NCBI RefSeq assembly: GCF_003018235.1 | Contig: NZ_CP027437.1 | Direction: 5' to 3' (one strand) | Length of the DNA stretch: 64,000 nt | DNA from: Escherichia coli | GTDB taxonomy: Bacteria > Pseudomonadota > Gammaproteobacteria > Enterobacterales > Enterobacteriaceae | Shown: one piece after another, positions 13,458 through 30,876 of the stretch | How the letters are laid out: the number at the start of each line of letters is the position of its first letter | Numbering within the stretch: the stretch's first letter is position 1 | Translations under genes and position numbers: made by a program | Notes under the pieces: generated by a model | What the model saw: only the letters and a program-made list of their open reading frames with translations | What the model was told of the DNA's origin: nothing | Databases searched by the model: none

Positions 13458-13484
13458 GGTATGCGCAATGTTCCATCATCTGCA

Positions 13485-13785: not shown

Positions 13786-13816
13786 AAAAAGGAGCCAGTC
13801 ATCTGAGGATGACTGG
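13786..13816 (-). terminator. Rho-independent terminator candidate
   Basis: Minus strand: CCAGTCATC-CTCA-GATGACTGG (perfect 9 bp) followed by CTCCTTTTT. Confidence 0.5.
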
Positions 13817-14338: not shown

Positions 14339-14340
14339 CA

Positions 14341-14416
14341 TGGTGGCCCTTGCTGGATTTGAACCAGCGACCTGGCGGTTATGAGCCGCTCGCTCTCACC
14401 ACTGAGCTAAAGGGCC
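14341..14416 (-). tRNA. Phage tRNA, anticodon CAU, ileX/ileZ-like (Ile2 type)
   Basis: GGCCCTTTAGCTCAGTGGT...CTCATAA...GGTTCAAATCCAGCAAGGGCCACCA. The acceptor and T arms resemble E. coli ileX as remembered. 76 nt with encoded CCA. Confidence 0.75.
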
Positions 14417-14534
14417 GCGCGCAGAATAATAACGTTACGGAATTAATACTGCAATATCTTCAGAAGGCCTGATTAAATGCTGTTCTTCACTTGTCCACCA
14501 GTGTGTTTACTGTACTGCACCAAGTTTACAGGTA

Positions 14535-14558
14535 CAAAAAACCCGCTCAGCGGCGGGT
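14535..14558 (-). terminator. tR'-type terminator downstream of the late promoter
   Basis: Minus strand: ACCCGC-CGCTGA-GCGGGT followed by TTTTTT, roughly 40-60 nt downstream of the predicted pR' start. Confidence 0.7.
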
Positions 14559-14605
14559 TCTTAAATCTTATCAACGGTAGACATACAAAGCCCATCGTTG
14601 GGAAA

Positions 14606-14634
14606 ATCTTATCCATATTTTTTGAAAAATGCAA
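14606..14634 (-). promoter_or_regulatory. Late promoter pR' candidate (Q-utilisation region)
   Basis: Minus strand: TTGCAT, a 17-nt spacer, then TAAGAT. It lies between the Q stop codon and the tR' hairpin. Confidence 0.6.
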
Positions 14635-14665
14635 GCATAATGTCGTCATCTTCGGCGAAAACCAT

Positions 14666-15418: not shown

Positions 15419-15431
15419 GCTCGTTCTCCAC

Positions 15432-16427
15432 TTACGCCAGTACGCCTATTGCCAGCGCACGATCGATAAAACGAAATATCAGCTCCAGCTGGGAGCCATA
15501 CTTCTCTTCAAATGCCACGGTATCCGCATGCAGCTCGTCGTGATGCTTTCTGCACAAAGGCAACACAAAGAGGTCATGCGCTTTTGTTCCCATTCCACCC
15601 TGACCGTGACCTATCAGGTGGTGGGGATCATCAGCAGGCTTTCCACAACATGCACACGGCTGTGTCTTAACCCAGCGCGTGTACTTTTCATTAACCCAGC
15701 GGCGACGTTTTGGGCGTAACATAAAAGACTCCGGCGACTCCGGATCCACTTTCAGCGCCAGCACCTTTTTCGCCTTATCCTGGATGATGCTGGTGGCAGG
15801 AACCGAAGGCACAAGGTCACTTTCCCGGGTGACAGACTGCACAACAGGCTTCGGTAATCTCAGTGCCTTACGGGCTGCACTTTCCGGTAAGGCATCCGCC
15901 AGGTCATTACGAATCAGCCACCAGCACAGTTCCGGCATTGTCACAACGTGACTGTCATCAAAACCGAGATCTCGACGCACAACAGACAACACCCAGCGGG
16001 CACAGTTATCCGTTGCCATTGATTCCAGCCGTTCCGTGAACTGATCGCGCAGCTGGTTATCGCAGTGCCAGCACAGACGGATTGCGCCCGGAGCGTGTCG
16101 CATTGTTATCATGTTTTCGCTGTGCCAGTCGGAATGAGACCACTGGCAGCCTTTTTCACGAAGTAACCAGCTTTCAAGACATTCCACGCCACCAGCACGA
16201 CGGATCACTGCCTCATTGCGGAACACGGCCCGAACGGCAGGATCATCCGCCAGCGGTTGTGATGCCGCCGGAACGGCACCACTGGCGAAAGATGAATAAC
16301 GTTCCGGCTCAGGCTCCAGCAGGACACGCCCCTGCATAAACAAGGGCATCAGCTCTGAACCTGGTCTGAACAATACGATCCCCATACGCGGGGCAATTTC
16401 AGGGGTCAGTAGTGCTCTCACGGTCAC
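15432..16427 (-). CDS. DUF968-family nin-region protein with a C-terminal HNH-like motif
   Basis: C-terminus CACCGKPADDPHHLIGHGQGGMGTKAHDLFVLPLCRKHHDELH. It sits just upstream of Q, as in many lambdoid prophages. Confidence 0.6.
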   Translation of the reverse strand: MTVRALLTPEIAPRMGIVLFRPGSELMPLFMQGRVLLEPEPERYSSFASGAVPAASQPLADDPAVRAVFRNEAVIRRAGGVECLESWLLREKGCQWSHSDWHSENMITMRHAPGAIRLCWHCDNQLRDQFTERLESMATDNCARWVLSVVRRDLGFDDSHVVTMPELCWWLIRNDLADALPESAARKALRLPKPVVQSVTRESDLVPSVPATSIIQDKAKKVLALKVDPESPESFMLRPKRRRWVNEKYTRWVKTQPCACCGKPADDPHHLIGHGQGGMGTKAHDLFVLPLCRKHHDELHADTVAFEEKYGSQLELIFRFIDRALAIGVLA

Positions 16428-16428
16428 C

Positions 16429-17244
16429 TCAATGAACGGTATCGAGCAGCTTTAACAGCTCAGGGAATCGGGATTCGAAGAAATGCGGCTGCGTCTCGCG
16501 CGGATTTGCAGGACTGGTGATGTTCTTGCCGAACATGCAGCCTTTCGCCGTCAGCGACCAGAATTTTTTGATGTTGTTAATCGCGGTACGGCTGTATCGT
16601 TCGCGTTGTTCAACGATCCCCAGCTTCGCCATCTGGTGATATGCCTGATTAGCCGTCAGGCGGATACCATACTGCTTCAGCAGTGCACTCAGCGACAGCG
16701 TAGGGCGGCTTGAACCATCTGGCGCATCAGCAGGTGCATCAATGGCATAGATCGGCATAAGTTCAGGAAGACCAGCTACCTTTGATAATTTCTGGTATGC
16801 ACCAAGTTTCGAGGAGTTTGACAGATTTAGAGTCTTTGCTGCTGATTCAAGCAGAATGACCCCGGATTTAATTTTGTCGGATGTGGTTTCTTCTGGTGAT
16901 GAATTATGAAGCGCATCAAAAGTACGTATCACTTTTAAGCTGAATGCCGGGCTGATCCACATTGCATATGCATAGACCAGCTCTTTACAGACATACGTCC
17001 CACCATTGCGCCCCTGAATGGTGATGACAGGAATACTACGGGAATCTCCCGTAGTTTCTTCTTCCAGTAATTCCACAAGAGCCTTCGTTTCAGGACGACG
17101 CATAAACTCGTGAACTTCCAGCGAACGGGAGGAGCGATTCTCACCAGCGGCAAGAAGAGCAGCTTTCTGAAGGTCGTTAAGACAGTAGTTAGATTCGAAG
17201 TACTGGCGCACAGAAACGCCATCAATTACAAGCAACTGATTCAT
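16429..17244 (-). CDS. KilA-N domain protein (antirepressor-like)
   Basis: IDGVSVRQYFESNYCLNDLQKAA...GGTYVCKELVYAYAMWISPAFSLKVI is the KilA-N pattern. ATG at 17244 with GGAGA upstream. Confidence 0.65.
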   Translation of the reverse strand: MNQLLVIDGVSVRQYFESNYCLNDLQKAALLAAGENRSSRSLEVHEFMRRPETKALVELLEEETTGDSRSIPVITIQGRNGGTYVCKELVYAYAMWISPAFSLKVIRTFDALHNSSPEETTSDKIKSGVILLESAAKTLNLSNSSKLGAYQKLSKVAGLPELMPIYAIDAPADAPDGSSRPTLSLSALLKQYGIRLTANQAYHQMAKLGIVEQRERYSRTAINNIKKFWSLTAKGCMFGKNITSPANPRETQPHFFESRFPELLKLLDTVH

Positions 17245-17406
17245 TGGTTTCTCCACAAATTTTTATCCACGAGCGGGACTGCACTCCCTTTTCGTTGATG
17301 CAGGATGAACTTACTGCGATTTTTAATAGTTATCAAGGGTACACTGTTCATAAACACAGTATCTTTAACGAGGTAATACCCCAATTTAGGGTGTTGCTCA
17401 ATTCCG

Positions 17407-17802
17407 TTACCGAGTTGCTAATTTGCAACTCGCTTTTTCGTACTTACTGATAGTGATCTCGACCTTCCCTTCCGGGATAACCGGTCCCCACTCCACCAGC
17501 ATTCTTTTCACCTGACTGTCGTCTTCCCACACACCCGCGTGGGTCAGGGCGTCAAACAGCGCCTTGTTATAGTTGTCCAGATCGCGGATCCGGTTATCCG
17601 GAGGAAACAACACGATCTCTACTGAAGCAGGTGCCGACGTTGGTTTCGGAATACGACGTAACTGCTCAACTATTGCTGCGCACGCCGCGCTCTGGAATTT
17701 GCGCCCCGCCGCGCTTATCAGGCTTTTACCAGCAAACGCCCCTTTGTTAGGGTGTCGCCAGTACGTATTCACGCTGGGCGGGAAAGGCAAGATCAGCTTC
17801 AT
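17407..17802 (-). CDS. rusA: RusA Holliday-junction resolvase
   Basis: MKLILPFPPSVNTYWRH...DLDNYNKALFDALTHAGVWEDDSQV is the RusA signature. Confidence 0.85.
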   Translation of the reverse strand: MKLILPFPPSVNTYWRHPNKGAFAGKSLISAAGRKFQSAACAAIVEQLRRIPKPTSAPASVEIVLFPPDNRIRDLDNYNKALFDALTHAGVWEDDSQVKRMLVEWGPVIPEGKVEITISKYEKASCKLATR

Positions 17803-18125
17803 ACTTTCAGGCCCCTCTCATGTAACCAGTGGGCTGCACGCAGCCTGGCGTTTTCCTCACCGGCAAGCAGTGAGCGGATAATCCCGACCGCCTCGCTGTC
17901 GTCGTCCTTCACCGCAGTATGAAGCGTGATACCCCGGGCCACGCCACGCTTTATCGTGATGACGCCTTTTTTCTCCAGCGCGCGAAGATGCTCCACCACT
18001 GCATTCACCGAACGGTATCCCAGCATGGTTGCCACCTCCTGATTGGTTGGCGGGAAGCCACGTTCTTTCTGATAAGAAATCAGCATATCCAGCACCTGCT
18101 GCTGGCATTGAGTTAACGTCGTCAT
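17799..18125 (-). CDS. LexA-type winged-helix DNA-binding domain protein, no peptidase domain
   Basis: LTQCQQQVLDMLISYQKERGFPPTNQEVATMLGYRSVNAVVEHLRALEKKGVI matches the LexA N-terminal domain. The protein ends after about 108 aa. Confidence 0.7.
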   Translation of the reverse strand: MTTLTQCQQQVLDMLISYQKERGFPPTNQEVATMLGYRSVNAVVEHLRALEKKGVITIKRGVARGITLHTAVKDDDSEAVGIIRSLLAGEENARLRAAHWLHERGLKV

Positions 18126-18613
18126 TAAGCCCCCACGTAATTCCCTGACAGATACCACTCTTCACCCGATGCAGCGCTCTTACTGCTTTTCCGTAAGCAC
18201 CGCTCACGACGCGCCAGAAAATTGTTTCGTTCTGACTGGGAGTGGCTTTCACGGAATGCCGCCATCCACACGGTTGCAGCACGACGGTATAAGCCCCTCG
18301 ACTCCAGTTCTTCAGCCTGGCGGGTCAGGCACAAAATCACCCGGGGGTCGTTAGTGCCGACATAGCAATTACGCACAGGTCTGGTTTCACAAACTGGTTC
18401 CGGCTCCTGCGCTCTCTCAGTCAGGCGCGGGAAATGTCTGCGTGTATATCCTTCGCAACGGTGATCCACACGCCCACTCTGACGTAACTTGCTTGCTGAC
18501 TGCAGAACGCGCTGCCGTGAGTAACCTGCAAAAGCATCCGCAATGTCTCCGGAAGTACACCCCGGATGGGCTTCAATGAATTTCTGAACGTCATTTAACA
18601 GACTCATGATCAC
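18125..18613 (-). CDS. YfdN-like protein with a PerC-like C-terminal region
   Basis: Near-identical, as remembered, to K-12 CPS-53 YfdN (MIMSLLNDVQKFIEAHPGCTSGDIADAF...). The C-terminal AEELESRGLYRRAATVWMAAF...RRERC resembles PerC/Pch regulators. Confidence 0.65.
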   Translation of the reverse strand: MIMSLLNDVQKFIEAHPGCTSGDIADAFAGYSRQRVLQSASKLRQSGRVDHRCEGYTRRHFPRLTERAQEPEPVCETRPVRNCYVGTNDPRVILCLTRQAEELESRGLYRRAATVWMAAFRESHSQSERNNFLARRERCLRKSSKSAASGEEWYLSGNYVGA

Positions 18614-19428
18614 CCCCTGAATCCTGCCGGGATCTGGCTGTAATCCACGTTGTCGTAACTGGATTTGAAGTACGGGTCCTCACGTCTGGCTGCAGATACC
18701 GCAGGAACTTCCCAGGATTCTTCGAAATGACGATCCGGACCAAAGAACGTGACAGCCTGTTTCACAAATTGTGTGCCGCTGTTACCCATCGCAGATACCC
18801 AGCCCGCATAGCGTTTCACACCTTCCAGCATGGTTTCGGGGTTTACCCCCTCATTCAAACGGGCTTTCCAGGCTTTGAAGGCTGCAGATTTTGAATTGCC
18901 ACCAGCACGTTTGGGATATGCCAGCCATGCCTGCTCAAACTCCGGAGAGTATTCCGGTCGGTTTGAACGAACTCGCACGGACTCATCAACTGATGCACCA
19001 ACAGCTATTGGTTCATTGACTGATTCTTTGACTGGTTCAAAAGAGTGACTGGTTCTGGGTGAATCTCCTGCACTACCCCCTGGTGCAACTCCTGCACTAC
19101 CTGGTGAATTTGCTGCACCAGATAATGAATTATTTGCACTACCCCCTAGTGAATCTCCTGCACCATCCAGATGAAGGAGATAGATATTACTTGAGTTACC
19201 TTTTTCACCTTTCCGGGTGACTTTTTTTACCAGCCCGGACTCACAAAGGGCCGCAATATGATTCATCACAGAACGTTTGCTAATCTCGCACTGGTCAGCA
19301 ATATGCTGGTAGCTGGGCCAGCACTCACCCTGATCGCTGGCATTATCAGCCAGCTTGATCAGAACCAGTTTTCGCAATGGATTACCCACTCGAATTTTCA
19401 TCGCTTTAACCATCAGCTCCATACTCAT
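18610..19428 (-). CDS. Replication protein O-like, helix-turn-helix (YfdO-like)
   Basis: N-terminal wHTH region (KLVLIKLADNASDQGECWPSYQHIADQCEISKRSVMNHIAALCESGLV). Start taken at ATG 19428, which overlaps the upstream stop as ATGA. Confidence 0.6.
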   Translation of the reverse strand: MSMELMVKAMKIRVGNPLRKLVLIKLADNASDQGECWPSYQHIADQCEISKRSVMNHIAALCESGLVKKVTRKGEKGNSSNIYLLHLDGAGDSLGGSANNSLSGAANSPGSAGVAPGGSAGDSPRTSHSFEPVKESVNEPIAVGASVDESVRVRSNRPEYSPEFEQAWLAYPKRAGGNSKSAAFKAWKARLNEGVNPETMLEGVKRYAGWVSAMGNSGTQFVKQAVTFFGPDRHFEESWEVPAVSAARREDPYFKSSYDNVDYSQIPAGFRG

Positions 19429-19661
19429 GCTGCACCTCCGAGATGCTTCATGTTTTTTCCGGAGCAAAAGGCTATAAGCGGCATACTGATGCGGTAATTA
19501 CGGCCCAGCGGTTCACAAATCACCTTCTGACATTCACGGTCAACCAGGCTAACACGTAGAACATGCCCTGCAGGCGTGGTGTACCACTGCCCAACTGTAG
19601 GAATTGATGTTTTTTTACGCTGAAGCAAACGGCAAATATTGAGGATCAACGGATTAAGCAT
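19425..19661 (-). CDS. Small hypothetical protein (DUF4222-like pattern)
   Basis: A 78-aa ORF whose start and stop overlap both neighbouring genes. VGQWYTTPAGHVLRVSLVD resembles the DUF4222 pattern. Low certainty. Confidence 0.4.
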   Translation of the reverse strand: MLNPLILNICRLLQRKKTSIPTVGQWYTTPAGHVLRVSLVDRECQKVICEPLGRNYRISMPLIAFCSGKNMKHLGGAA

Positions 19662-20490
19662 GACGATGCCCTCCGTTGATATTCAGGAGACGGTGAATAT
19701 GAAAATTAGCCTTATCCGCCAAACGAATACGTTCAGCCTGCAAGTTAAGAAGTGTTTCTACCAGAACCTGATGCGCCTGCGGATCCGAAAGAGTTACCTT
19801 GCGCAGAGCACGTAGTGCAGTTGTTACATAACTGAGTTTATGTAAGTCTTCATCATTCAGACGAGTGAGGGCTGGGACAGTAGCCATGATGGCAGCCTCC
19901 TTGATCGGTGAAATACTTCCACCACCGGAAACGCCAATTTCGCTGGTGGTGAACTGAACGGGGTTGGCGTAACCGGTGATCAAGGAAACCGGCGCATCTT
20001 TCGATGCCCCCGCCCAGCCCACCATAACTTTGATGTGAGCAAATGCGGACGATAAAAAAGACGCTGGCGCGTCATATATCGCCTTGATCAATTCCAGGAC
20101 GCCAATCCCGGCACCCGCTTTATAAGGTGCCTGAACAGTGTAACGTCCCGGAATGGCAGAATCAATGTGCTGGTGGTCCTTCACACTCAACAAAATCACG
20201 CCTGAATTTCCACAAAGGACTAAAGCACTCATGCGGGTAGTCTTTGCGAAGATAGATAACGCGCTGTGTTTCTGGCTCCCAACGAATAACATGGACATAA
20301 AGCCCTCTTCCGTCACGAAACCAGCGGTTAAGTTCCTGCACAACTCGCCCCCCACAGTCAGGTAAAGTTCTCTGTGGTTACTTACAGCCAGGTGATTTGG
20401 TAATCTGCATTCATGCCGTAACAACAGGTGTTCAGCGACGCTGACCACCAGCTGTTGCGACAAACGGTTATTTGCCGTTAAACTGTTCAT
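19654..20490 (-). CDS. Hypothetical 278-aa protein in the replication module
   Basis: A long ORF with a 4-nt overlap to the cII-like gene upstream and an 8-nt overlap to the next ORF. No family recognised. Confidence 0.55.
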   Translation of the reverse strand: MNSLTANNRLSQQLVVSVAEHLLLRHECRLPNHLAVSNHRELYLTVGGELCRNLTAGFVTEEGFMSMLFVGSQKHSALSIFAKTTRMSALVLCGNSGVILLSVKDHQHIDSAIPGRYTVQAPYKAGAGIGVLELIKAIYDAPASFLSSAFAHIKVMVGWAGASKDAPVSLITGYANPVQFTTSEIGVSGGGSISPIKEAAIMATVPALTRLNDEDLHKLSYVTTALRALRKVTLSDPQAHQVLVETLLNLQAERIRLADKANFHIHRLLNINGGHRHA

Positions 20491-21071
20491 GCGTTAGTTT
20501 CTCCACAGACACAAAACGCCACGACGCCCGGAGCTGCACACTCGCGGGCGTCACTACTTTCTGAAACGCAAAAGATTTTGTAGACCAGTGCTGCATGCTC
20601 CTGGAGCTTCGAAATTGACAGATACAACTCATCATTAATTGCTGTCTGCTCGTGTGGCTCCACTACCCCATCTTCGATTGCCGAACGAATCTGCTTTGAG
20701 TAACTCCCGATCTGTTCGATGACTTCCAGCAGGCGCTGGTTTATATCGGCGTTCTCTACTTCCTCAATTTCAGGAAGCGATACAAACACCCCACCTGCAG
20801 ACTGTGCGACAGCATCCGCAATGTAGTGAGTGCCAGCCGCGCGCTGTAAAATCATTGCCCATCCCAGCGGGAAAATCTGATCGCCATCTGCACGAAGGCG
20901 GTTGAATAAAGCGTTCTCTGTTACATCCAGCCACTCAGCAGCTTCAGCGTAACCCCCCGGCAACGCCGCGATAGTTTTTCTGACAGCTTTCACGTACCAC
21001 TCAGGCTGTTTTTCTACTTTCCAGTGATGCTTACCCACGGCTATCTCCTTAAAACTGTGGTTACTTTTCAT
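20487..21071 (-). CDS. cII-type early regulator (phage 186 CP76-like / YdaT position)
   Basis: ATG at 21071. EAAEWLDVTENALFNRLRADGDQIFPLGWAMILQRAAG resembles the phage regulatory CII family. It lies immediately after cro. Confidence 0.5.
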   Translation of the reverse strand: MKSNHSFKEIAVGKHHWKVEKQPEWYVKAVRKTIAALPGGYAEAAEWLDVTENALFNRLRADGDQIFPLGWAMILQRAAGTHYIADAVAQSAGGVFVSLPEIEEVENADINQRLLEVIEQIGSYSKQIRSAIEDGVVEPHEQTAINDELYLSISKLQEHAALVYKIFCVSESSDARECAAPGVVAFCVCGETNA

Positions 21072-21309
21072 CTGATGAGTCTTTAATCTTTTGAAAAATA
21101 TCTGGACGTAATTTTTCTTTTGATACGCCAGTGGTCTTTTCAATGAAAATCGAGAGCTTTGCAGGGGGACGCTTTTCTCTGTTCAACCAGTTCCAGACAT
21201 GTTGTTGCTTTACTAAATGACCGCTGCTGGCTGTGAGCTTCCGAGCCAATTCTGATTGACCACCAGCCAGAGCGATTGCCTCCGATAAGGCTAATTGCTC
21301 AGGTGTCAT
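21061..21309 (-). CDS. Cro-like repressor (YdaS-type HTH)
   Basis: 82 aa with HTH GGQSELARKLTASSGHLVKQQHVWNWL. It is divergent from cI across the operator region. Confidence 0.75.
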   Translation of the reverse strand: MTPEQLALSEAIALAGGQSELARKLTASSGHLVKQQHVWNWLNREKRPPAKLSIFIEKTTGVSKEKLRPDIFQKIKDSSDEK

Positions 21310-21330
21310 AGCTTTCTCCTTTTTCGGTAG

Positions 21331-21415
21331 TTAAGTTGTTACGAGATGCAAGAATACAACATTAACAACTTTTATCACAACTTTTAGGTGTTGGAAAGCT
21401 AAAACATAAAGTTGT
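21331..21415. promoter_or_regulatory. OR operator/promoter region
   Basis: CAAC/GTTG-based repeats. ACAACTTTTAGGTGTTG (21377-21393) and ACATAAAGTTGT (21404-21415) recur almost unchanged in the OL region (23097-23113 and 23057-23068). Confidence 0.65.
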
Positions 21416-21444
21416 AACCTCATCAGAAAAGAGAGGGATATGTT

Positions 21445-22131
21445 GTGAAAACACTGGCAGAACGATTAAAGATAGGTAGAGAGAAAGCTGGCATGAGCCA
21501 AGCTCAACTAGCTGAAAAAATTGGACTTTCACAACAATCTGTAGCCAAAATAGAGAATGGAGAAACTCTACAACCGCGCAAAATTAAAGAAATTGCAAAA
21601 ATTTTAGGTGTATCACAAAAGTGGTTACAACTTGGTATTGAAGACAACGCATCCATACCTGATCTTGTTGTAAAAGAAGCAGAAAGCACCGCATTAGACC
21701 CCGATATTTTCGTAAACATTCCTGTTTTAGATGTCGAGTTATCGGCTGGTAACGGATGTCTGGCTGAAATAGTTGAATCAGCTATTGACTGGTTTCCGTT
21801 AAGAAGAGCAGATTTGAGAAAATCTGGCGTATGTGCATCTAATGCCAAGATCGTAAAAATCTGGGGGAACAGTTTATTACCGGTTCTCAATAATGGAGAT
21901 CTTGTTGCCGTTGATATTTCTCAAACCGTTCCTATTCGTGATGGCGATCTTTATGCCGTACGAGATGGTGTATTGCTAAGGGTTAAAATACTTATCAACT
22001 TACCTGACGGTGGCTTGATTCTTAGAAGCTTCAACAAAGATGAGTACCCAGATGAAATACTCACCTTTGAGGATAGACGAGCCAGAATTCATGTTATAGG
22101 TAGGGTATTCTGGTCATCGCGAACTTGGTAA
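21445..22131 (+). CDS. CI-type prophage repressor (XRE HTH plus S24 LexA-like peptidase)
   Basis: GTG start. HTH MSQAQLAEKIGLSQQSVAKIENGE. The C-terminal autoprotease pattern GNSLLPVLNNGDLVAVD ... LLRVK is present. Confidence 0.85.
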   Translation: MKTLAERLKIGREKAGMSQAQLAEKIGLSQQSVAKIENGETLQPRKIKEIAKILGVSQKWLQLGIEDNASIPDLVVKEAESTALDPDIFVNIPVLDVELSAGNGCLAEIVESAIDWFPLRRADLRKSGVCASNAKIVKIWGNSLLPVLNNGDLVAVDISQTVPIRDGDLYAVRDGVLLRVKILINLPDGGLILRSFNKDEYPDEILTFEDRRARIHVIGRVFWSSRTW

Positions 22132-23004
22132 TGCGTCGAAAAGCATTTCTTCAGAAATAATTTTAAGTTTTGCACCATTATCATCCCGATAAGATATAGC
22201 CTTTTCGATCTTCCTTCCGTGACTTGAGAATTTCCAATCACGGGAGGAAAGCGTCCCTATTACTAAAAAATCCAACTTTTGAGTAATTCCACTACTGATG
22301 TTCCCACCAGCATTTTTAATCAAATTTTCAACTACGGCTCTCTTTCCTGCAACAAAAGTGCCTGTAAGACAATAGGTTTTACCCTCTAACTCTATCGAAG
22401 CCCCTACATCAATAGGCAGCCTGGTCGCCAAACCATCCACCACCCCACTTTCCAAGTCACATCCAGTGAAGTCTACTAATGCCTTATGTAGAGTTAAACT
22501 CTCATCTTCAGTAATAACACCATCTTTAAGAATTTCCTTTACAAGTGCATAAAGGTTTTTTCCTGGGTAGTTGTTCCTCAAAGCTCCATTTTGCTCAAGC
22601 CACCAATTAAGATATCTTATTTCTTCTTGAGTTAAGTTTCGATCAGCAATTAATCATTTACATAGTCCATTAAGTAAATGGACATCTACATCTTTGGAGT
22701 AAAAATCAATTTCAGGGATATCAAGAATTTCTCTCTGTATTTGAAGAAGGCTATTTTTAAGGTCATCACGTTCTTCTGATGTGATTATTCCATCCGCAAG
22801 AATATCCGATACCCGTGCTGATAGACTTTTTATAACTCCATTATTGATAATCTGCTTTGCTTCAAGTAACCATGTATCTAAGTAAAGAACCTCCTCTTCA
22901 CGGACAACTCCATCTGCAATGATTCCATCAATGATGCTAATCAAGTTAGCAAATAACTTGTCCCGGTTCTGTGTGTAATTAAAAGCGTAAAGCGCGTCTT
23001 CCAT
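22114..23004 (-). pseudogene. TerB-like repeat plus BRCT-domain protein, interrupted by one in-frame TGA (22654-22656)
   Basis: ATG at 23004 with AGGAGG upstream. There are four copies of an (I/L)x(A/K)D(G/R)x(I/V/L)xxEE helix motif. The C-terminus GKTYCLTGTFVAGKRAVVENLIKNAGGNISSGITQKLDFLVIG...KLKIISEEMLFDAL follows the LigA-type BRCT pattern. ORFs 22654-23034 and 22114-22581 share one frame. Confidence 0.6.
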
Positions 23005-23056
23005 ACAACCTCCTTTTTTTGATAATCCTTGCACTCCTTGACTACACGTTCAAACT

Positions 23057-23113
23057 ACATAAAGTTGTTGACAACATTCAAAACAACAACCAGATTACAA
23101 CTTAAAGGTGTTG
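23057..23113 (+). promoter_or_regulatory. OL operators and candidate pL promoter
   Basis: Operator repeats shared with OR. TTGACA at 23068-23073, with AGATTA/GATTAC 18-19 nt downstream. Confidence 0.5.
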
Positions 23114-23186
23114 AGATGACGAACAGGCAGGACGCCCACGAAGTAGCCGTCTGGGGCATATGAAGTCCAGGATGATTCGTTAGCAA

Positions 23187-23210
23187 CAAAAAAGCGCCCT
23201 ATAGGACGCT
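23187..23210 (-). terminator. Rho-independent terminator of the DUF1311 gene
   Basis: Minus strand: AGCGTCC-TATA-GGGCGCT followed by TTTTTT, about 30 nt after the stop codon. Confidence 0.6.
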
Positions 23211-23211
23211 T

Positions 23212-23224
23212 CGCTCTTTAACAA
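23212..23224 (+). promoter_or_regulatory. boxA-like element in the pL transcript
   Basis: CGCTCTTTAACAA equals the boxA consensus as I recall it. It lies about 120 nt downstream of the candidate pL. Confidence 0.45.
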
Positions 23225-23237
23225 TCTGGATGACTTA

Positions 23238-23750
23238 TTACTCAGATTTGAACTTTGGTTCTGGCAAAAGAGGAGGAGTTGAGTCCTCGAATCGTAGCCA
23301 GTGCTCCCAGATATCGTGGGATTGTAATTCCAGAAGACCAATTTGACGTGATGCAACTGCAGTGCCAGCTATAGTTCCTCCTGCATAATCAACCTGGACG
23401 GACTTTGACGCTTTCTCAATTAATTCTGTCCAAGCTTCACTTTCCGCGTTAAAAGAAGCAGTTAATTCCTGCAGACGCTGTGGATCATCCTTGTTGTCTT
23501 GTTTCAAACGATTCAGGGCGGCCACCGAATACTTATTCTTAACCCAGCTAACCTGAGCTAACTGAACTCTCTGACAAGCGTCCATATCAGTAGTTGTTTC
23601 CTGAGGCATATCAAAGCAGGAAATAAAAAAAGTCTCAACACCATCATTTAGACTACTGCTCGGCTGGTTCAAAGCATCAGAAGCATTGGATGCTATCGGT
23701 ATTATCAGTGCTACCGACAGAATCAAACGTTTAACATAAATCGCTCCCAT
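23238..23750 (-). CDS. Secreted DUF1311 (LprI-like) protein, moron antisense to the pL transcript
   Basis: A signal peptide (LILSVALIIPIASNASDA), then the C...C...W...Y...Q..W pattern of DUF1311. The gene has its own terminator. Confidence 0.6.
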   Translation of the reverse strand: MGAIYVKRLILSVALIIPIASNASDALNQPSSSLNDGVETFFISCFDMPQETTTDMDACQRVQLAQVSWVKNKYSVAALNRLKQDNKDDPQRLQELTASFNAESEAWTELIEKASKSVQVDYAGGTIAGTAVASRQIGLLELQSHDIWEHWLRFEDSTPPLLPEPKFKSE

Positions 23751-23916
23751 TTAATTATCCCCTCTAAGAACAGAGTCATCCAGATTATCTGAATCCTTGT
23801 TGTTGGGGAATAACCAGGCCCACCTCGCCTGATGTGGCTAAAAGCAGGCACATAACAGCTAAGTATTTTCAACCAGAGAGAATCCTTAGCGTTGTGGTGA
23901 ATGCGGCTCAGCGCAC

Positions 23917-24010
23917 GCGGGCTAAGGTTGAGGCTGACAGTCGACCTTCTGTGGATACCCACCCGCCTGGTGTGCAACCTTCGCCAGGCACCGGGAGGCA
24001 CCCGGCACCA
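23917..24010 (+). ncRNA. GC-rich multi-hairpin RNA module in the pL leader (candidate cis-acting or small RNA)
   Basis: Hand-folded stems. 23924-23948: AAGGTTGA/TCGACCTT. 23951-23962: GTGG/CCAC. These two are closed by GCGG/CCGC at 23917-20/23963-66. 23966-23988: CCTGG/CCAGG. 23991-24005: CCGGG/CCCGG. There is no convincing ORF here. Confidence 0.4.
23989..24010 (+). repeat. 22-nt GC-rich hairpin motif, pL-leader copy
   Basis: CACCGGGAGGCACCCGGCACCA, identical to the minus strand of 13485-13506. Confidence 0.9.
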
Positions 24011-24035
24011 CAACTTTATGCTGTGTATAGTCCTG

Positions 24036-24082
24036 GCGGTACCAGTTTGTACCCTTGCTTCCGGCTGGTACCGCTCTTTTTA
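24036..24082 (+). terminator. Rho-independent terminator in the pL leader
   Basis: GCGGTACCAG ... CTGGTACCGC (10-bp stem, 19-nt loop) followed by TCTTTTT. The 3' arm and tail also read CGCTCTTTTTACAA, which is boxA-like. Confidence 0.55.
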
Positions 24083-24170
24083 CAAAACAGAGAAGAGCAT
24101 CACCGGACGACGGGCTCATAACCCAATCCACCCGGGCGGCTGCCACCGCAGGTGTTCTTCTCTGTTTTGT
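24082..24170 (+). repeat. Perfect 15-bp inverted repeat enclosing 59 nt
   Basis: ACAAAACAGAGAAGA (24082-24096) pairs with TCTTCTCTGTTTTGT (24156-24170). The interior has further CACC/GGTG, CGGG/CCCG and GCGG/CCGC pairings. Confidence 0.85.
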
Positions 24171-24218
24171 GGAGAAACCAACCGACCTTGCAGGGTCGAT
24201 ATGATGAGGAGCAGCAAA

Positions 24219-24581
24219 ATGGCTAGCGAACGCAGTACCAACGTGCAGGAATTTATCGTAGAACTGGACGGCGGCGTATTTGAAACTAAACTCGGCGCAG
24301 TTCTCAGTGAAGTCGCTTCCGGTGTGATGAACACGAAAAACAAAGGTAAAGTCTCGGTCAATCTGGACATCGAACCGTTTGATGAGAACCGTGTAAAAAT
24401 CAAACACAAACTCTCATATGTTCGCCCGACTAACCGCGGGAAAATTTCTGAAGAAGACACCACCGAAACGCCGATGTATGTCAATCGCGGTGGTCGCCTG
24501 ACTATTCTGCAGGAAGACCAGGGACAGTTACTGACTCTTGCCGGTGAACCTGACGGAAAACTCCGTGCAGCAGGTCGTTAA
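24219..24581 (+). CDS. YfdP-like early-left protein
   Basis: MASERSTNVQEFIVELDGGVFETKLGAVLSEV... GAGGAG lies 9 nt upstream. The 120-aa length matches K-12 CPS-53 YfdP as remembered. Confidence 0.6.
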   Translation: MASERSTNVQEFIVELDGGVFETKLGAVLSEVASGVMNTKNKGKVSVNLDIEPFDENRVKIKHKLSYVRPTNRGKISEEDTTETPMYVNRGGRLTILQEDQGQLLTLAGEPDGKLRAAGR

Positions 24582-24646
24582 TATCGTTTTTAATAAACTG
24601 ATTATTTATCTCATCACTGAATATCTTTATATAGTGAGGACTTATT

Positions 24647-25471
24647 ATGTCTCAGAACTTAGACGCAACCGCAATTAATCAAATCCATGCTCTTATTTCT
24701 GCTCAGGGTGTTAATGAAATTATCAGTAAGATTGGTGCCGATGCCGTGGCATTGCCTGAGAATTTCCGCATTCATGATCTGGAAAAATTTAATTTAAATC
24801 GCTTCCGTTTCCGTGGTGCGCTTTCCACTGCCAGCATTGATGATTTTACCCGTTATTCTAAAGATCTTGCAGATGAAGGCACCCGCTGCTTTATCGATGC
24901 CGATAATATGCGAGCCGTCAGTGTGCTTAACCTGGGTACTATTGATGAACCAGGTCACGCAGATAACACCGCCACTCTCAAACTGAAAAAGACAGCACCG
25001 TTCTCTGCCCTGTTGTCTGTTAACGGCGAGCGTAACTCCCAGAAGTCACTGGCAGAATGGATTGAAGACTGGGCCGACTACCTTGTGGGCTTTGATGCTA
25101 ATGGTGACGCCATTCAGGCAACAAAAGCGGCTGCGGCAGTCCGTAAAATAACGATTGAAGCAAACCAGACCGCTGATTTTGAAGATAATGACTTCAGCGG
25201 CAAACGCTCCCTGATGGAATCTGTCGAAGCGAAGACCAAAGACATTATGCCAGTGGCATTTGAATTTAAATGCGTTCCGTTTGAAGGCCTGAAAGAACGT
25301 CCGTTTAAATTACGCCTCAGCATTATCACTGGCGATCGTCCTGTACTGGTTCTGCGCATTATTCAGCTGGAAGCAGTGCAGGAAGAAATGGCTAACGAAT
25401 TTCGTGATCTGCTTGTTGAGAAATTCAAAGACAGCAAAGTAGAAACCTTTATTGGTACTTTTACCGCCTGA
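24647..25471 (+). CDS. YfdQ-like DUF2303 protein
   Basis: A 274-aa ORF, recognised as the YfdQ family from memory. Confidence 0.6.
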
Positions 25472-25598
25472 TTTCCTTACTGCAAATGCCCCTGCGGGGG
25501 CATTTATGGAAACATAATTGACTCAATAATCGCCTGATGGCGAGGGTTTTCTTTAACCAAAATTCTGCGCGGTGCAGCGCATATACGTGGAGAACAAA

Positions 25599-26135
25599 AT
25601 GTCATTTATTAAAACTTTTTCCGGGAAGCATTTTTATTATGACAAGATAAATAAAGACGACATCGTGATTAACGATATCGCGGTTTCCCTTTCAAATATC
25701 TGTCGCTTTGCAGGACATCTTTCACACTTCTACAGTGTCGCCCAGCATGCAGTGCTTTGCAGCCAACTGGTGCCGCAGGAATTTGCTTTTGAAGCGTTAA
25801 TGCATGATGCAACAGAAACGTATTGCCAGGACATCCCCGCACCACTGAAACGACTTCTTCCTGACTATAAACGGATGGAAGAAAAAATAGACGCCGTAAT
25901 CCGTGAGAAATACGGGTTACCTCCTGTTATGAGCACGCCAGTGAAATATGCCGATCTCATTATGCTGGCAACCGAACGCCGCGATCTCGGACTTGATGAT
26001 GGCTCTTTCTGGCCTGTATTGGAAGGTATCCCGGCAACAGAGATGTTCAAAGTTATTCCACTGTCGCCAGGTCATGCCTACGGGATGTTTATGGAACGTT
26101 TTAACGAGTTATCGGAGTTACGCAAATGCGCATGA
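25599..26135 (+). CDS. YfdR-like HD-domain 5'-deoxynucleotidase
   Basis: MSFIKTFSGKHFYYDKINKDDIVINDIAVSLSNICRFAGH...HDATE (HD motif). Confidence 0.7.
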   Translation: MSFIKTFSGKHFYYDKINKDDIVINDIAVSLSNICRFAGHLSHFYSVAQHAVLCSQLVPQEFAFEALMHDATETYCQDIPAPLKRLLPDYKRMEEKIDAVIREKYGLPPVMSTPVKYADLIMLATERRDLGLDDGSFWPVLEGIPATEMFKVIPLSPGHAYGMFMERFNELSELRKCA

Positions 26136-26488
26136 ATGTTTTCGAAATGGAAGGGTTTCTTCGCGGGAAATGTGTACCGCGAGATCTGAAAGTGAACGAA
26201 ACAAATGCTGAGTACCTAGTACGTAAATTCGACGCGCTTGAAGCTAAATGTGCGGCACTGGAAAACAAAATAATACCAGTGTCAGCTGAATTGCCACCTG
26301 CAAATGAAAGTGTTCTGTTATTTGATGCTAACGGAGAAGGCTGGCTGATTGGCTGGCGTTCTCTCTGGTACACCTGGGGACAAAAGGAAACCGGAGAATG
26401 GCAGTGGACATTTCAGGTCGGGGATCTTGAAAACGTCAATATCACTCACTGGGCAGTAATACCAAAGGCACCGGAGGCAGGGGCATAA
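26126..26488 (+). CDS. YfdS-like hypothetical protein
   Basis: A 120-aa ORF overlapping both neighbouring genes, with synteny to CPS-53. Confidence 0.5.
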   Translation: MRMNVFEMEGFLRGKCVPRDLKVNETNAEYLVRKFDALEAKCAALENKIIPVSAELPPANESVLLFDANGEGWLIGWRSLWYTWGQKETGEWQWTFQVGDLENVNITHWAVIPKAPEAGA

Positions 26489-27108
26489 TGACCACATTTA
26501 CCGACAAAGAACTGATTAAAGAAATCAAAGAGCGCATAGGCAGTCTGGATGTGCGAGACAATATTGAGCGCCGTGCTTATGAAATTGCTTTGGTATCGCT
26601 GGAAGCAGAACCGGTGGCATGGCTGCATTCAGACAATGGCTTAGGTATTCCGGCAATAACACGGAGTAAAAACATTGCTGACAGTTGGTTATCAAAGGGC
26701 TGGTATGTTCAGCCGCTATATATAGCCAAGCCAGTGCCGATGGTGCCAGATGTTCGTCCGTCTTTAAATAATGGCATAGTCGGCTTTGATGAAGGCTGGA
26801 ACGCCTGCCGCGCCGCCATGCTTCATGGTGCCGAACCTGTAAGCCAGACTTACAAGTTGAACGAGCTGTCGGGCAACTCTCCGGTAACTCCGGATGGTTG
26901 GATAAGCTGTAGTGAGCGAATGCCGGACGATAAACAGTATGTTTGGTGTTGGGGTAAGTCTTACGGCTGGACTGAGTGCGATACCTTCGAAGGGTATTAC
27001 GATTGGTCGAGAAACAAATGGTGGGCAGTTACTGACGATGGGGAAGAACCGGCATCGAAAGTAACCCACTGGATGCCGCTACCGGAGCCACCGCAGGAGG
27101 TGAAGTAA
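26488..27108 (+). CDS. YfdT-like protein with a C-terminal DUF551
   Basis: GWISCSERMPDDKQYVWCW...THWMPLPEPP is the DUF551 pattern. Confidence 0.55.
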   Translation: MTTFTDKELIKEIKERIGSLDVRDNIERRAYEIALVSLEAEPVAWLHSDNGLGIPAITRSKNIADSWLSKGWYVQPLYIAKPVPMVPDVRPSLNNGIVGFDEGWNACRAAMLHGAEPVSQTYKLNELSGNSPVTPDGWISCSERMPDDKQYVWCWGKSYGWTECDTFEGYYDWSRNKWWAVTDDGEEPASKVTHWMPLPEPPQEVK

Positions 27109-27302
27109 TGAACAACTTAATGACAACTAAACAAGTCGCCGACTTCTGTGGCGTTTCAGTATCGACCGTTCTTCGATGGAACAGCGTAAACAGGAGAACT
27201 GGCCAGAAATACAGGCCTGAGTTTCCAGATCCTGATATTAAATCCTGCCCAAATAAATGGGCATCACACAAGATTTACAGATTTGCGGGAGTGATTGATT
27301 AA
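27108..27302 (+). CDS. AlpA/Xis-type excisionase
   Basis: 64 aa. LMTTKQVADFCGVSVSTVLRWN is the MerR-like HTH seen in AlpA/excisionase proteins. Confidence 0.65.
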   Translation: MNNLMTTKQVADFCGVSVSTVLRWNSVNRRTGQKYRPEFPDPDIKSCPNKWASHKIYRFAGVID

Positions 27303-27584
27303 TATGTATTAGCTTAGATGTGAGCTGACACATCTATGATTAGATGCCAAACCTAATCTGAGCGTCCACTCTTTACCAAGAGCGGACGTTACCAATGACC
27401 ATATGACATGAATCGATAAGATCAAAACATTATCGCCAAGAAATGTCATACCATTGATACAAATAAAATTGATTACCCCCTTACTCTTGTTGAAAAGTTA
27501 GTCGTAGAGTACCTATCGCAATGTAATCAGCTTTAATCATTTGAAAATTACTCCTTAAAAATTAGCTTTTATATACTGAACAAA

Positions 27585-28304
27585 TTAAATCTCTGTTTCT
27601 TTTCCTGTTCGGCTCAACCAATACTCCATTGTTTGAGTATGAATCTTTTCAGCGTATATTTTATCAATTAATTTATCTCGTTTTTCTTTAATGACTTTAC
27701 GCAGTGAATCATATAACATAAAAAAACGTTCATCGTCTTCCTCATTATTACCGTAATTTATTTGATTGAGTTCTGAAAAAATATGATAATACCTTTTTTT
27801 CTTGGTCCCCGGCAATATTAAAACCAAGCCACATTGATCATATTCGAATTCACCTTTATGGGCAGCAAAGTTATGTCTAACATTCATAATAGAATCATGT
27901 AAATCTCTGTATTTTTCTGGCACATGCTTTCTCTGCAATGTGAATCGACGCCCTTTCGCCTCTGTAAAACACTTACCGTAAGTAACAACTTTTGATATAA
28001 ATAAAGACTTTAATATTAGATTCTTTTCTAAATCAGGATAAATAAAGTGTTGTTCTCTATTAATGTTATTACAAATGTTTTTTATTATATTCTCCCAACC
28101 AATAACATTCCGAAGATCTTTATCCAGCAACTGTAAGGCCACATATTGTTCTACAAAGCGGCCTTTTAAAGGTATTCGTGGTAATATTACACCTTTCTGC
28201 TTATAAACTCTTTCTATCGTATTATCTGGATATTGGATCTTCCTTATTTCTATTCCGTCTTCTTCTGATACCCTTACTAATGGTTCATTTTTTAACTTTG
28301 ACAT
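27585..28304 (-). CDS. Orphan AT-rich 239-aa protein with an Rx5H motif (possible HEPN-like Abi)
   Basis: A long ORF in a visibly AT-rich block, flanked by about 280 bp of non-coding DNA on each side, between xis and int. Motif VRHNFAAHKG (R143..H149). Confidence 0.6.
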   Translation of the reverse strand: MSKLKNEPLVRVSEEDGIEIRKIQYPDNTIERVYKQKGVILPRIPLKGRFVEQYVALQLLDKDLRNVIGWENIIKNICNNINREQHFIYPDLEKNLILKSLFISKVVTYGKCFTEAKGRRFTLQRKHVPEKYRDLHDSIMNVRHNFAAHKGEFEYDQCGLVLILPGTKKKRYYHIFSELNQINYGNNEEDDERFFMLYDSLRKVIKEKRDKLIDKIYAEKIHTQTMEYWLSRTGKETEI

Positions 28305-28589
28305 GTTAACCCTCTTAAATAAAAAACTAACTTTATCCAGATAGTGTCCGTTAAGAAGTTTTCGTTACAACTAAGTTTCTAGGTAAATCATGAATCATCC
28401 TATAGTATCAAAAACATTTGGTGGTAAACATCTGCATTTATCAAATAGCAGGAGCGATTTAGGGGCATAGGGATAGTGATGATATCTATACCCGCCCCCT
28501 CTTATGTCAACACAATGGAGTAAACTTAACGCTCACATTTCGCTCAAAGTGTGCTAGGAGATTTGGTTATGTTCAGGTGATACAAACCG

Positions 28590-29813
28590 TCAGTTTGAAT
28601 CAGAGATAGTACAATTAACAATCGATTCAACCCTCTTCCACCATGCCAGGTAAGCTTTACGCTGTTCTTCTAGATAATCGCTCTTATCATAAACTTGCCA
28701 TACCCCTGGCAGCTTATGACCAAGCATAATTTCTGCGATATGAGGCGCAGTAAGATCAGAAAAATTTGTTCGTGCTGTCCGTCTCAAGTCATGAAGAGAC
28801 CAATGAGGGAATTGATATCCTAAACGCCGCCACGCGTACTGCATTAAATTGTAAGGCAGCGACTGTAATGATGTCCTACCGACGGGTTCCCTGCTTCCTT
28901 CCTTAGTAAAAAGCATATCGGAACCGTTGTTCATAGAGATAACGTATTTTATAAGCTCTTCAACCGGTTCAATAATGGGCCGCTTTAGCGGTTTGCCTGT
29001 TATGTCCCCTGTCTTATGTCGTTCAGGTGGTACAGTCCATACCTTATTTATGAAATCAAAATCACCCACCCTAGCAGTAATTAGCTCCGAACTACGGCAA
29101 CCAAAATGCAGTAATAGTTTAATGAAGGCCCGGTATTTGGGAACCATTCTAGAGCCATCGATCGCAGCATAAAGAATTTTAATTTCATCGTGTGTCAGAA
29201 ACCGTTTCTTCTGACCTTTACGGATATCCATATCTTTACCCGTGATATCCGACAGCGGGCGAGTTTCAATAAGCTTTCTCTTATACGCCCAGACATGGGC
29301 CTGCTTTGCGTTAATTAGCAATCGGTCTGCTATTGCTGGAGTCTTAGTGCTAAGAGGCTCCAAGACTTCTAACCAATCATGCAATGTAGCTGCATCGTGA
29401 GGGATATTCCCGATTTTAGAGAACAGGTGCAGCTCAAACGAGCGGAGTATCTGTTCAGAACCCTTTTTATTTTTTACACAATATGCTTCATACCAGGCAC
29501 GGATCACAGACTCTACCGTCATGGCTTCAGTAGCTTTTCGTTTTTCAGCCTGCTTGACCAATCGTGGATTACGGTTTGACTCGAGTTCACCACGGAGACG
29601 GATAACTTCTTCTCTGGCCTCTTTTAATCCAGTTGCCGGGTAAGTTCCGATATCAAGACGCTCACCTTTCCCTGCCCATTGATAACGATATTGGAACACT
29701 ACGCGACCTTTCGGTGATACTCTGACAGACAGACCATCACGATCGGATTTAACCAAAACCTTATCACGTTCCTTTCCAACGACTGAACGCAACCACGCAT
29801 CAGACAGCGCCAT
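28590..29813 (-). CDS. int: Tyrosine integrase (P4-type, with DUF4102 N-terminus)
   Basis: MALSDAWLRSV...GLSVRVSPKGRVVFQYRY N-terminal arm domain. The C-terminal catalytic region contains HDLRRT...GH and a terminal Y region. Confidence 0.9.
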   Translation of the reverse strand: MALSDAWLRSVVGKERDKVLVKSDRDGLSVRVSPKGRVVFQYRYQWAGKGERLDIGTYPATGLKEAREEVIRLRGELESNRNPRLVKQAEKRKATEAMTVESVIRAWYEAYCVKNKKGSEQILRSFELHLFSKIGNIPHDAATLHDWLEVLEPLSTKTPAIADRLLINAKQAHVWAYKRKLIETRPLSDITGKDMDIRKGQKKRFLTHDEIKILYAAIDGSRMVPKYRAFIKLLLHFGCRSSELITARVGDFDFINKVWTVPPERHKTGDITGKPLKRPIIEPVEELIKYVISMNNGSDMLFTKEGSREPVGRTSLQSLPYNLMQYAWRRLGYQFPHWSLHDLRRTARTNFSDLTAPHIAEIMLGHKLPGVWQVYDKSDYLEEQRKAYLAWWKRVESIVNCTISDSN

Positions 29814-30033
29814 TACTCACCTTGTACAAATCGCAAAACACCTCTGCTGCTTTGTACATTATGTACAAGCACATGTACAGATTTTTGATGAAAGCAACCT
29901 GATCGATTTAAAGTTACATGAAAGAATTTTCAATTAAAGAAGCCACATAACTATATGTATTTAAATGATTTATATAGCTAGACCTCAATTAACTGAAAGG
30001 ATTTTGAAAGAGTAAAAGAGCTTTAATTTGGGA

Positions 30034-30108
30034 TTAATTATTGGGGTGAGAAATAATGGCAAAAGTGCGGCGCTTCGCCACCTCTTGCAAATAAGGAGAC
30101 AACGTCAT
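30034..30108 (-). pseudogene. prfC: prfC 5' remnant (first 22 codons of RF3) fused to phage sequence
   Basis: The minus strand reads [22 protein letters not shown], then NN*. RF3 continues DAGKTT after SHP. Similarity ends at about 30043. Confidence 0.85.
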
Positions 30109-30198
30109 AATTCTTTCTTCTTGAGTAAGCGGCATCGCGCCGCGCTTGTTGAAAACGAAAAATTGCGGCTATTTTACCCATCAACGGGGGGGAGGCAA

Positions 30199-30876
30199 TC
30201 AGTGTTTACACAGGAGCTGCTCCAGTTCGTGCAACGAAGAAACGGTCCAGGTGGGCGCGATGCCTTCTGGTTGCTCGCGATTGTGCGCATTCAGCCAGCA
30301 GGTCGCAAGCCCGGCGTTGATGCCACCGAGAATATCGGACTCGGCAGTGTCGCCAACCATCAGCACGCGTGAACGGTCAGGATTGCCCGCCTGTTCCAGC
30401 GCATAATCGAAAATTTTCTTATTCGGTTTGGCAACGCCAACTTCTTCGGAAATCACCAGCAAATCGAAATAATCACGCAGGCCCGTGCGTTCCAGACGCA
30501 CTTGCTGCAAGGCGCTAAAGCCGTTGGTGATGATGCCAATTTTAGCGTTGCCACGAATGGCGTTAAGCAGAGAAACCGCGCCCGGCAGCGGCGTACAGAT
30601 TTCCGCCATCGCATTAATAAAGGCTTCGTTGAGTTTACCCGGCTCGACGTTCAGCCGTTCGGCCCAGCTCTCAAACCGCCCGTGCTGAAGCTGTAATGAA
30701 GTGATCGCGCCGTTTTGATAATCCACCCACAGTGGCTTGTTAACGGCCTGATAGTCCTGAAAATCTTCAGCGGTAAAGGTGACGCTGTAATCAAGAAACA
30801 TCCGCTGCAGGCCGGTGAATGAGTCAAAGGTAAACAGCGTTTCATCGGCATCAAAGAAAATCCAGTCCCACTTCAT
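30199..30876 (-). CDS. yjjG: Pyrimidine 5'-nucleotidase YjjG (HAD family)
   Basis: 225 aa. [15 protein letters not shown] carries the HAD motif I. Synteny with rimI/holD. Confidence 0.9.

Follow-up and report, generated by a model that had tools for sequence, protein, structure and literature searches.

When phage 21 and e14 integrate at icd, a phage copy of the displaced gene end preserves the open reading frame. At prfC, the gene for the translation factor RF3, Hochhut and Waldor (1999) reportedly found that SXT/R391 elements use the same codons as the prophage described here and bring an element-borne substitute start. Phage cdtI, for its part, is said to have been reported as inducible by Asakura et al. 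in 2007.

SXT/R391 elements integrate in the 5' end of prfC, and the feature that defines this family is an integrase (Int) nearly identical to IntSXT (PMC2791158). Stx1a and Stx2c phages have been reported at prfC as well (PMC10132054), and Smyshlyaev et al. 2021 found that the integrases of the cdt1 phage and of SXT, both prfC-targeting, cluster (PMC8138268). A preliminary description of the present locus had named prfC as an insertion site of lambdoid and Stx prophages, and these two reports bear it out. In phages cdtI (AB285204 / NC_009514; Asakura et al. 2007) and 2H10 (NC_049950), a dinI-like gene, a prfC-like start, the core and int follow each other in one order, which in cdtI is preceded by cdtABC.

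Here we analyse a 64-kb window, that is, a whole stretch of 64,000 nucleotides of E. coli DNA, in which a prophage ends within prfC. Positions 30034-30108 are very probably the attL of a cdtI-type lambdoid prophage integrated in prfC codons 18-22 (I-I-S-H-P, the start of the P-loop), the far end of which would rebuild prfC. The phage group, the att site and the gene-restoration strategy are already known.

The junction between prfC and the prophage

The junction and its host flank comprise the following features.

30034..30042, minus strand: phage-derived AAT AAT TAA, which closes the stub open reading frame after 24 residues
30043..30108, minus strand: severed native 5' end of prfC, ATG plus 21 codons, with the third base of Pro22 (30043) already phage-derived
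30044..30057, minus strand: 14-bp identity core (overlap region) of attL, ATTATTTCTCACCC, made up of prfC codons I18-I19-S20-H21 and the first two bases of P22
30109..30198, minus strand: native prfC upstream region (yjjG-prfC intergenic), 100% identical to, and contiguous with, intact yjjG-prfC in unoccupied genomes
30199..30876, minus strand: yjjG, the host gene immediately upstream of prfC in unoccupied genomes, which marks the host side

On the minus strand, 30108..30034 reads ATGACGTTGTCTCCTTATTTGCAAGAGGTGGCGAAGCGCCGCACTTTTGCCATTATTTCTCACCCCAATAATTAA, an open reading frame of 24 residues. These limits, which had been given in the preliminary description, coincide exactly with its start and stop codons. 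The codons are ATG ACG TTG TCT CCT TAT TTG CAA GAG GTG GCG AAG CGC CGC ACT TTT GCC ATT ATT TCT CAC CCC AAT AAT TAA, and the reading frame departs from that of RF3 between P22 and D23, within the G1/P-loop motif SHPDAGKT. The att junction had been placed in the 5' end of prfC at the P-loop, and the core at 30044-30057 together with the P22/D23 frame break confirms this. The position proposed for it, about 30043, needed refinement: base 30043 is already phage (the third base of P22, C versus G in attB), base 30058 is host (GCC versus GCA in the phage), and the crossover falls in the core between the two. After the core, the attP of phage cdtI gives the same ...SHPNN* reading. In the lysogen YDC107, the counterpart of the 30043..30108 stretch is labelled by RefSeq as a partial pseudogene missing its C-terminus. 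GC content falls across the junction, from about 0.53 in host DNA to 0.40 towards the integrase, and at higher coordinates beyond the junction lie yjjG, rimI and holD on the minus strand and rsmC on the plus strand, followed by three tRNA-Leu genes.

ATTATTTCTCACCC is the sole sequence common to attL and attR. The same core is recorded by the depositors of the Stx1a/Stx2c phage sequences as a 14-bp 'duplication due to insertion', read as attatttctcaccc. No second copy of the junction sequence was found in the 64-kb window with up to 3 mismatches allowed, and none of the shuffles of the window produced a match to it. Since the junction sequence is present only once in the window, the far junction of the prophage lies beyond it.

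An attB site was assembled in silico from the host half of the window, which comprised the core and the 343 nt that precede it, and the prfC half of the attR of another lysogen. Comparison with an unlysogenised attB had been proposed beforehand as a check; the assembled site was 100% identical over 677 nt to intact yjjG-prfC, and 4,717 of the 5,426 complete E. coli genomes covered it contiguously at 80% or more. In the same way, the phage halves of the window attL and of the lysogen attR were joined into a 925-nt attP, which is present as a single contiguous piece in Escherichia phage 2H10 (99.4%) and Enterobacteria phage cdtI (97.4%). Because the halves of attB and attP match unoccupied genomes and phages, the 30043..30108 stretch is the native host 5' end of prfC. 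The attL type, defined as the integrase-yjjG junction, was present in 698/5,426 complete E. coli genomes, which together with the 4,717 attB-contiguous genomes account for all but about 11 of the total. The attR type, sought with a junction-spanning query at a coverage of at least 80%, was likewise present in 698/5,426, the two counts having been tallied separately, over genomes that need not be the same.

The preliminary description had also named a scenario that would overturn its own reading, in which the genome has an intact prfC elsewhere and the 66-nt stretch is phage DNA that mimics attB. It is true that cdtI-type phages carry an imitation of the prfC 5' end. However, this imitation, found at the dinI end of the prophage and not at the int end, encodes another N-terminus (MTSLLAA...) with the codons AAA AGA AGA ACC ... 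GCA, whereas the 66-nt stretch of the window is contiguous with yjjG and the native intergenic region at 100% identity to unoccupied genomes. Moreover, genomes with this attL are without a contiguous attB. The roles are the reverse of those supposed, the window holding the 66 native nucleotides and the mimic lying at the other end of the prophage, and we give this reading next to no chance of being correct.

The rebuilt prfC at the far junction of related lysogens

In the lysogen YDC107 (NZ_CP025707.1; its prophage locus, L001, provides the coordinates of the far end), a lambdoid prophage of about 47 kb ends at prfC. At its far end, a prfC annotated as full-length is separated by 219 intergenic bp from a dinI-like gene, which runs on the opposite strand. 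The attR reads ATG ACA AGC CTT TTG GCC GCA GAG GTA GCG AAA AGA AGA ACC TTT GCA ATT ATT TCT CAC CCG GAC GCC GGT AAA ACA ACC, the phage end supplying an ATG and 20 codons in frame with DAGKTT. An inspection of the other junction had been suggested in the preliminary description, and in these relatives it reveals what was to be looked for: a duplicated 14-bp core and a phage start that runs in frame into SHPDAGKT. All the attR cases that we sampled were annotated as prfC. The attR arm also matches, at 97.5%, the Stx1a/Stx2c phages of E. coli CC119 (O165:H25/O172:H25; LC727876 onward), which have the same phage-borne start.

The chimeric RF3 has 528 aa versus 529 aa for the native protein, and the two are identical at 521/521 positions from E8/E9 onward; residues 1-7/8 alone differ (MTLSPYLQ in the native and MTSLLAA in the phage-borne version). 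Native RF3 N-termini at 19 other loci are variable in length and sequence before a conserved 10-residue segment, and since they vary freely there, the swap of residues 1-7 lies within natural variation. The chimeric RF3 is presumably fully active. Its exact sequence was found on at least 1,000 contigs, with RF3_ECOK1 as the UniRef representative.

The native and phage-borne starts share 14 residues before DAGKTT. Over the 27 nt (9 codons) upstream of the core there are 8 differences between them, all synonymous (GTG/GTA, AAG/AAA, CGC/AGA twice, ACT/ACC and GCC/GCA), and among 200,000 random sets of 8 substitutions none kept all nine residues. That 8/8 differences are synonymous therefore indicates that the phage-borne start has been selected as a coding sequence. 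The conserved arginines are encoded in the phage-borne start by AGA AGA, codons 12-13 (L001 48952-48957), and in the native start by CGC CGC. AGA is a rare codon in E. coli, and the AGA AGA pair could lower translation of the rebuilt RF3.

This organisation would result from site-specific recombination by a tyrosine recombinase between attP and prfC codons 18-22, at the 14-bp core. The arm of the phage attP opposite int carries a ribosome-binding region and an ATG with 20 codons that imitate the prfC 5' end and terminate in the core. Upon integration, the native promoter and the first 22 codons are left beside int as the 24-residue stub seen in the window, and the phage-borne start would be fused to the remaining prfC at the far junction to give the 528-aa RF3, from an intact open reading frame of the form ATG...FAIISHPDAGKTT. 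The step that we infer for this strain is that its attR would be like the other 698.

The alternative is that prfC is inactivated here, the working substitute start having been lost at attR through deletion, rearrangement or mutation. In this strain the far junction falls beyond the window, and secondary insertions into the prophage, namely a group II intron and an IS21-family IS, show that it has changed since it integrated. A loss would be tolerated as well: prfC had been called essential for fitness in the preliminary description, but the gene is not essential, viable E. coli ΔprfC strains being in routine use (PMC2791158), and prfC is one of the core genes that Bobay et al. 2013 list as 'disrupted' where prophages have integrated (PMC3603311). 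Against this, each far junction examined in other lysogens has an in-frame substitute start and an annotated intact prfC, and the attL count equals the attR count (698). The purely synonymous divergence of the phage-borne codons, moreover, bespeaks selection for function, and the chimeric RF3 is extremely common. We consider inactivation very improbable. Judged from the other lysogens, the prfC of this strain has almost certainly been rebuilt and the host gene not destroyed.

The integrase, the attachment arms and the excisionase

The recombination functions adjoin the junction on its phage side.

27108..27302, plus strand: excisionase (Xis), 64 aa, with a full-length match to PHROG 1553 (E=2.3e-35) and a weak HTH_17 Pfam match; transcribed towards the att site
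28590..29813, minus strand: tyrosine integrase, 407 aa, of P4/SXT-type three-domain architecture; transcribed away from the core
29814..30043, minus strand: P' arm (core-to-int spacer), with four TGTACA repeats at 29823-29879

The preliminary description put the integrase gene about 220 bp away; indeed, the open reading frame begins 220 nt past the stop codon of the stub, and 230 bp past the core. Its product matches the Pfam families Arm-DNA-bind_3 (PF13356, 60.4 bits), Phage_int_M (PF22022, 32.1) and Phage_integrase (PF00589, 63.7), all above the curated cut-offs, and is identical to the integrase of phage cdtI at 397/405 positions (98%). In an alignment of 16 sequences with 50-84% identity to the query, R240, K267, R344, H366 and Y375 were invariant and H341 nearly so. 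By their motifs (GCR, HKTG, HDLRRT, LGH and Y), these residues would fill the catalytic R-K-H-R-H-Y roles.

Of the 11 copies of the hexamer TGTACA in the 64-kb window, 4 are crowded into 57 bp of the int-side arm (Poisson P ~5e-10 per 60-bp window). The other arm, as seen in the lysogen, has four more at L001 48784-48898. The repeats are probably arm-type binding sites for Int, to judge by this clustering on either side of the core and by the Arm-DNA-bind_3 domain of the integrase.

Between xis and int, in the usual cargo position, there is an open reading frame of 239 aa (27585-28304, minus strand) with a full-length match to PHROG 8440, for which no function is assigned in that database. Searches of this open reading frame against Pfam and PADLOC returned no matches.

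Candidate promoters at the two junctions

At the far junction, the neighbouring phage genes run on the opposite strand, so a promoter is needed on the 219-bp phage arm. In a consensus scan of the 219 bp upstream of the phage-borne ATG, we found no sigma-70-like site of 9/12 or better on the prfC strand; the best candidate, from a lenient scan, was TTTTCT-17-CATAAT (8/12). We infer that a promoter on the phage arm drives the chimeric prfC. One of the two alternatives raised beforehand was that the far end provides a new promoter and a new N-terminus: the N-terminus is indeed there, in frame, in other lysogens, and the promoter is required by the layout, with only weak candidates found.

On the side of the window, the best promoter-like match in the native prfC upstream region, predicted by simple consensus scans, is TTGCCT-16-TAAAAT at 30198..30171. 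After integration this predicted native promoter faces the prophage, towards int, and a simple pattern scan, which is weak evidence, detected no terminator from the native prfC stub up to int. When the phage is circular, its substitute start region for prfC reads over the core towards int; in the lysogen, int is preceded at 220 bp, on its own strand, by the native prfC promoter, the 22 codons and the stop. It is conceivable, if doubtful, that integration swaps promoters reciprocally, with the host prfC promoter feeding int expression in lysogens and the phage start region driving prfC.

Both att arms contain the motif TTGTACATAAT (window 29853-29879 and L001 48881-48903). It holds the best weak -10-like element, CATAAT, which lies 44 nt before the int ATG on the one arm and 16 nt before the phage-borne prfC ATG on the other. 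If TGTACA is the Int arm site, binding of Int would overlap both candidate promoters. With -10 elements located within TTGTACATAAT, Int on its arm sites could tune its own synthesis as well as RF3 levels. The AGA-AGA pair and the weak promoter might also, together, reduce the amount of RF3 in lysogens.

At L001 48712-48760, in the interval from the dinI-like gene to the substitute prfC start, there are two LexA-box-like palindromes, CTGTGTTTGTATACAG and CTGTATGAATAAACAG, which overlap the predicted promoter of dinI, TTGACA-18-AAAAAT. The region that would drive the rebuilt prfC is therefore divergent from an apparently SOS-regulated promoter.

The visible part of the prophage

The features below lie in the part of the prophage that is contained in the window.

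1..30043: int-proximal ~30 kb of a lambdoid prophage, which runs off the window start and whose low-GC end adjoins int
6885-8924, minus strand: NanS-p-like protein of 679 aa with DUF1737, SASA esterase and DUF6645
9609-13347, minus strand: group II intron, with Rfam D1-D4 pieces at 13062-13347 and domain V at 9609-9681
10201-11013 and 11220-12002, plus strand: rve transposase and IstB, respectively, of an IS21-family element in the intron, annotated IS100 in relatives
13426-13637, minus strand: STnc100 sRNA
14262-14416, minus strand: tRNA-Met(cat) and tRNA-Lys(ttt)
14666-15418, minus strand: Q antiterminator
19942-20130, minus strand: C4 antisense RNA (82 bits) and isrK (64 bits), adjacent; a P1/P7-type antirepressor immunity module in the prophage early region

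The lambdoid content of this part consists of the Q antiterminator, a DUF551 protein, Xis and Int, and the annotation of the related YDC107 prophage includes cI/cro-like genes, Q, and lysis, terminase, head and tail genes. When 24 kb of the prophage was compared by megablast with the 5,426 complete E. coli genomes, the best match had 71% coverage and 94.5% identity. The reverse-transcriptase open reading frame of the intron (12012-12896, 294 aa, RVT_1) has been shortened by the IS21-family insertion, and the whole forms a three-level nest of IS within intron within prophage. The late region, 6885-15418 on the minus strand, is arranged as in an Stx phage. The window contains no stx genes, and there is no space for them between the tRNAs and the intron; the intron and the IS sit where the toxin cassette would be.

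The junction might be regarded as a fossil, the trace of a defective prophage that can no longer excise. An IS-interrupted group II intron in the late region would fit such a history, as would the annotation of several YDC107 prophage genes as partial pseudogenes. Yet int is full-length and close to its cdtI counterpart (98% identity), xis is intact, and the relatives examined have kept the core and the arm repeats on both sides; in addition, the intron and the IS are in an accessory ('moron') position and not in an obviously essential gene. We regard a loss of the ability to excise as unlikely.

The integrase family across species

Both Gamma- and Betaproteobacteria contain homologues of the integrase at 50% identity or more. 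We examined 80 loci from genomes that represent species; at 19 of them, a 5' fragment of prfC, which ends exactly with the conserved 10-residue segment, precedes a homologous int by 197-235 nt and shares its strand. These loci include representatives of E. coli, Pantoea, Serratia, Pseudomonas, Marinobacterium, Methylomonas, Methylobacter and Methylibium, as well as Kangiella, Rheinheimera, Halomonas, Variovorax, Microbulbifer and others. The order of prfC stub, a spacer of ~200-235 nt and int, all on the same strand, held at 19/19 of the prfC-associated loci, and this geometry is not found in SXT/R391. At more distant relatives the prfC fragment is absent and the integrase genes adjoin other gene ends; at 17 non-prfC integrase loci, no tRNA genes were found.

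At one such locus, in a Piscirickettsiaceae MAG (L043, ~2745-2830), a 44%-identical integrase lies ~175 nt downstream of a fragment that reads ...IKNIRNFSIIAH and then MNNRAF. It looks like a LepA (EF4) N-terminus severed at the corresponding P-loop position, which suggests that a sister clade may insert at this motif in the gene of a paralogous GTPase; the LepA call was made by eye in this single MAG, on a fragment with no canonical start codon. Integrases of 40-47% identity at L022, L039, L042 and L051 lie ~180-290 nt downstream of what appear by eye to be MoaC-, AlaS-, PlsX- and Icd-like C-terminal ends. With such 3' ends beside int, the wider family would therefore use both 5'- and 3'-end targets in protein genes.

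Discussion

An RF3 rebuilt by a phage, its N-terminus and presumably also its promoter being foreign, is present in about 13% of complete E. coli genomes. RefSeq annotates an intact prfC in the lysogens and RF3_ECOK1 is chimeric; therefore, the 'E. coli K1' RF3 reference has a phage-derived N-terminus, and it is this chimeric protein that serves as the UniRef/Swiss-Prot representative. These results are of value for annotation, since integration at the 5' end of a gene resembles a knockout, and taking the 24-codon stub as proof of prfC loss would mislead. In this respect, the data presented here argue against the 'disrupted' score that Bobay et al. 2013 gave to prfC (PMC3603311). The understanding of site-specific integration is unchanged by the finding of an attL in prfC.

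The window has in common with cdtI-type phages a cdtI-like Int, an attL through ATTATTTCTCACCC, an attP that is contiguous in the free phages, and lambdoid genes with int and xis at their end. It differs from cdtI and 2H10 in that the visible 30 kb is without cdt genes, has an unlike late region and includes an IS-interrupted group II intron; the closest relatives match only about half of the 24-kb query. The late region is like that of Stx phages in its Q gene, its tRNAs and its NanS-p-like esterase, and unlike it in that the window is without stx.

SXT/R391 elements were compared through R997 (NZ_KY433363.1), which is deposited in circular form. The R997 Int is 39% identical to the window Int over its full length (E=9e-89). 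The attP of R997 reads ATG GCA AAC CAA GAT TTT CTT AAT GAA ATC AAT AAG CGA AGG ACC TTT GCT ATC ATC, followed by the TCC CAC CC core. Its substitute N-terminus thus consists of 19 residues plus (SHP), and it recombines at the same IISHP codons as the window prophage. The similarity ends there: SXT/R391 is a conjugative element with setR, setCD, eex and mobI (as seen in R997), whereas the 30 kb in the window and the related full prophage have phage functions only, and in R997 int runs towards the core, convergently with xis, whereas the window int points away from it. Among the features of the SXT/R391 family, the prfC 5' site and a substitute N-terminus are present here, a near-identical Int is absent (39%), and so is the conjugation and regulation backbone (setR, setCD, tra, mobI, eex). 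Membership of the window element in SXT/R391 is ruled out by the 39% Int identity, the lack of a conjugation backbone and the orientation of int relative to the core. As far as sequence comparison goes, these results support the view that the element would work like SXT/R391 without being a member of it.

Elements specific for dusA, such as IMEVchUSA3, also insert at the 5' end of a gene, with a new promoter and a divergent N-terminus that restores the frame (PMC8409611). They differ in target gene and element type, and dusA expression after integration has been measured experimentally (PMC8409611), whereas the restoration of prfC here is predicted from sequence. At icd, phage 21 and e14 replace the 3' end of the gene, and therefore no new promoter or start codon is needed there; at prfC, by contrast, it is the 5' end that is replaced, together with the start codon and presumably the promoter.
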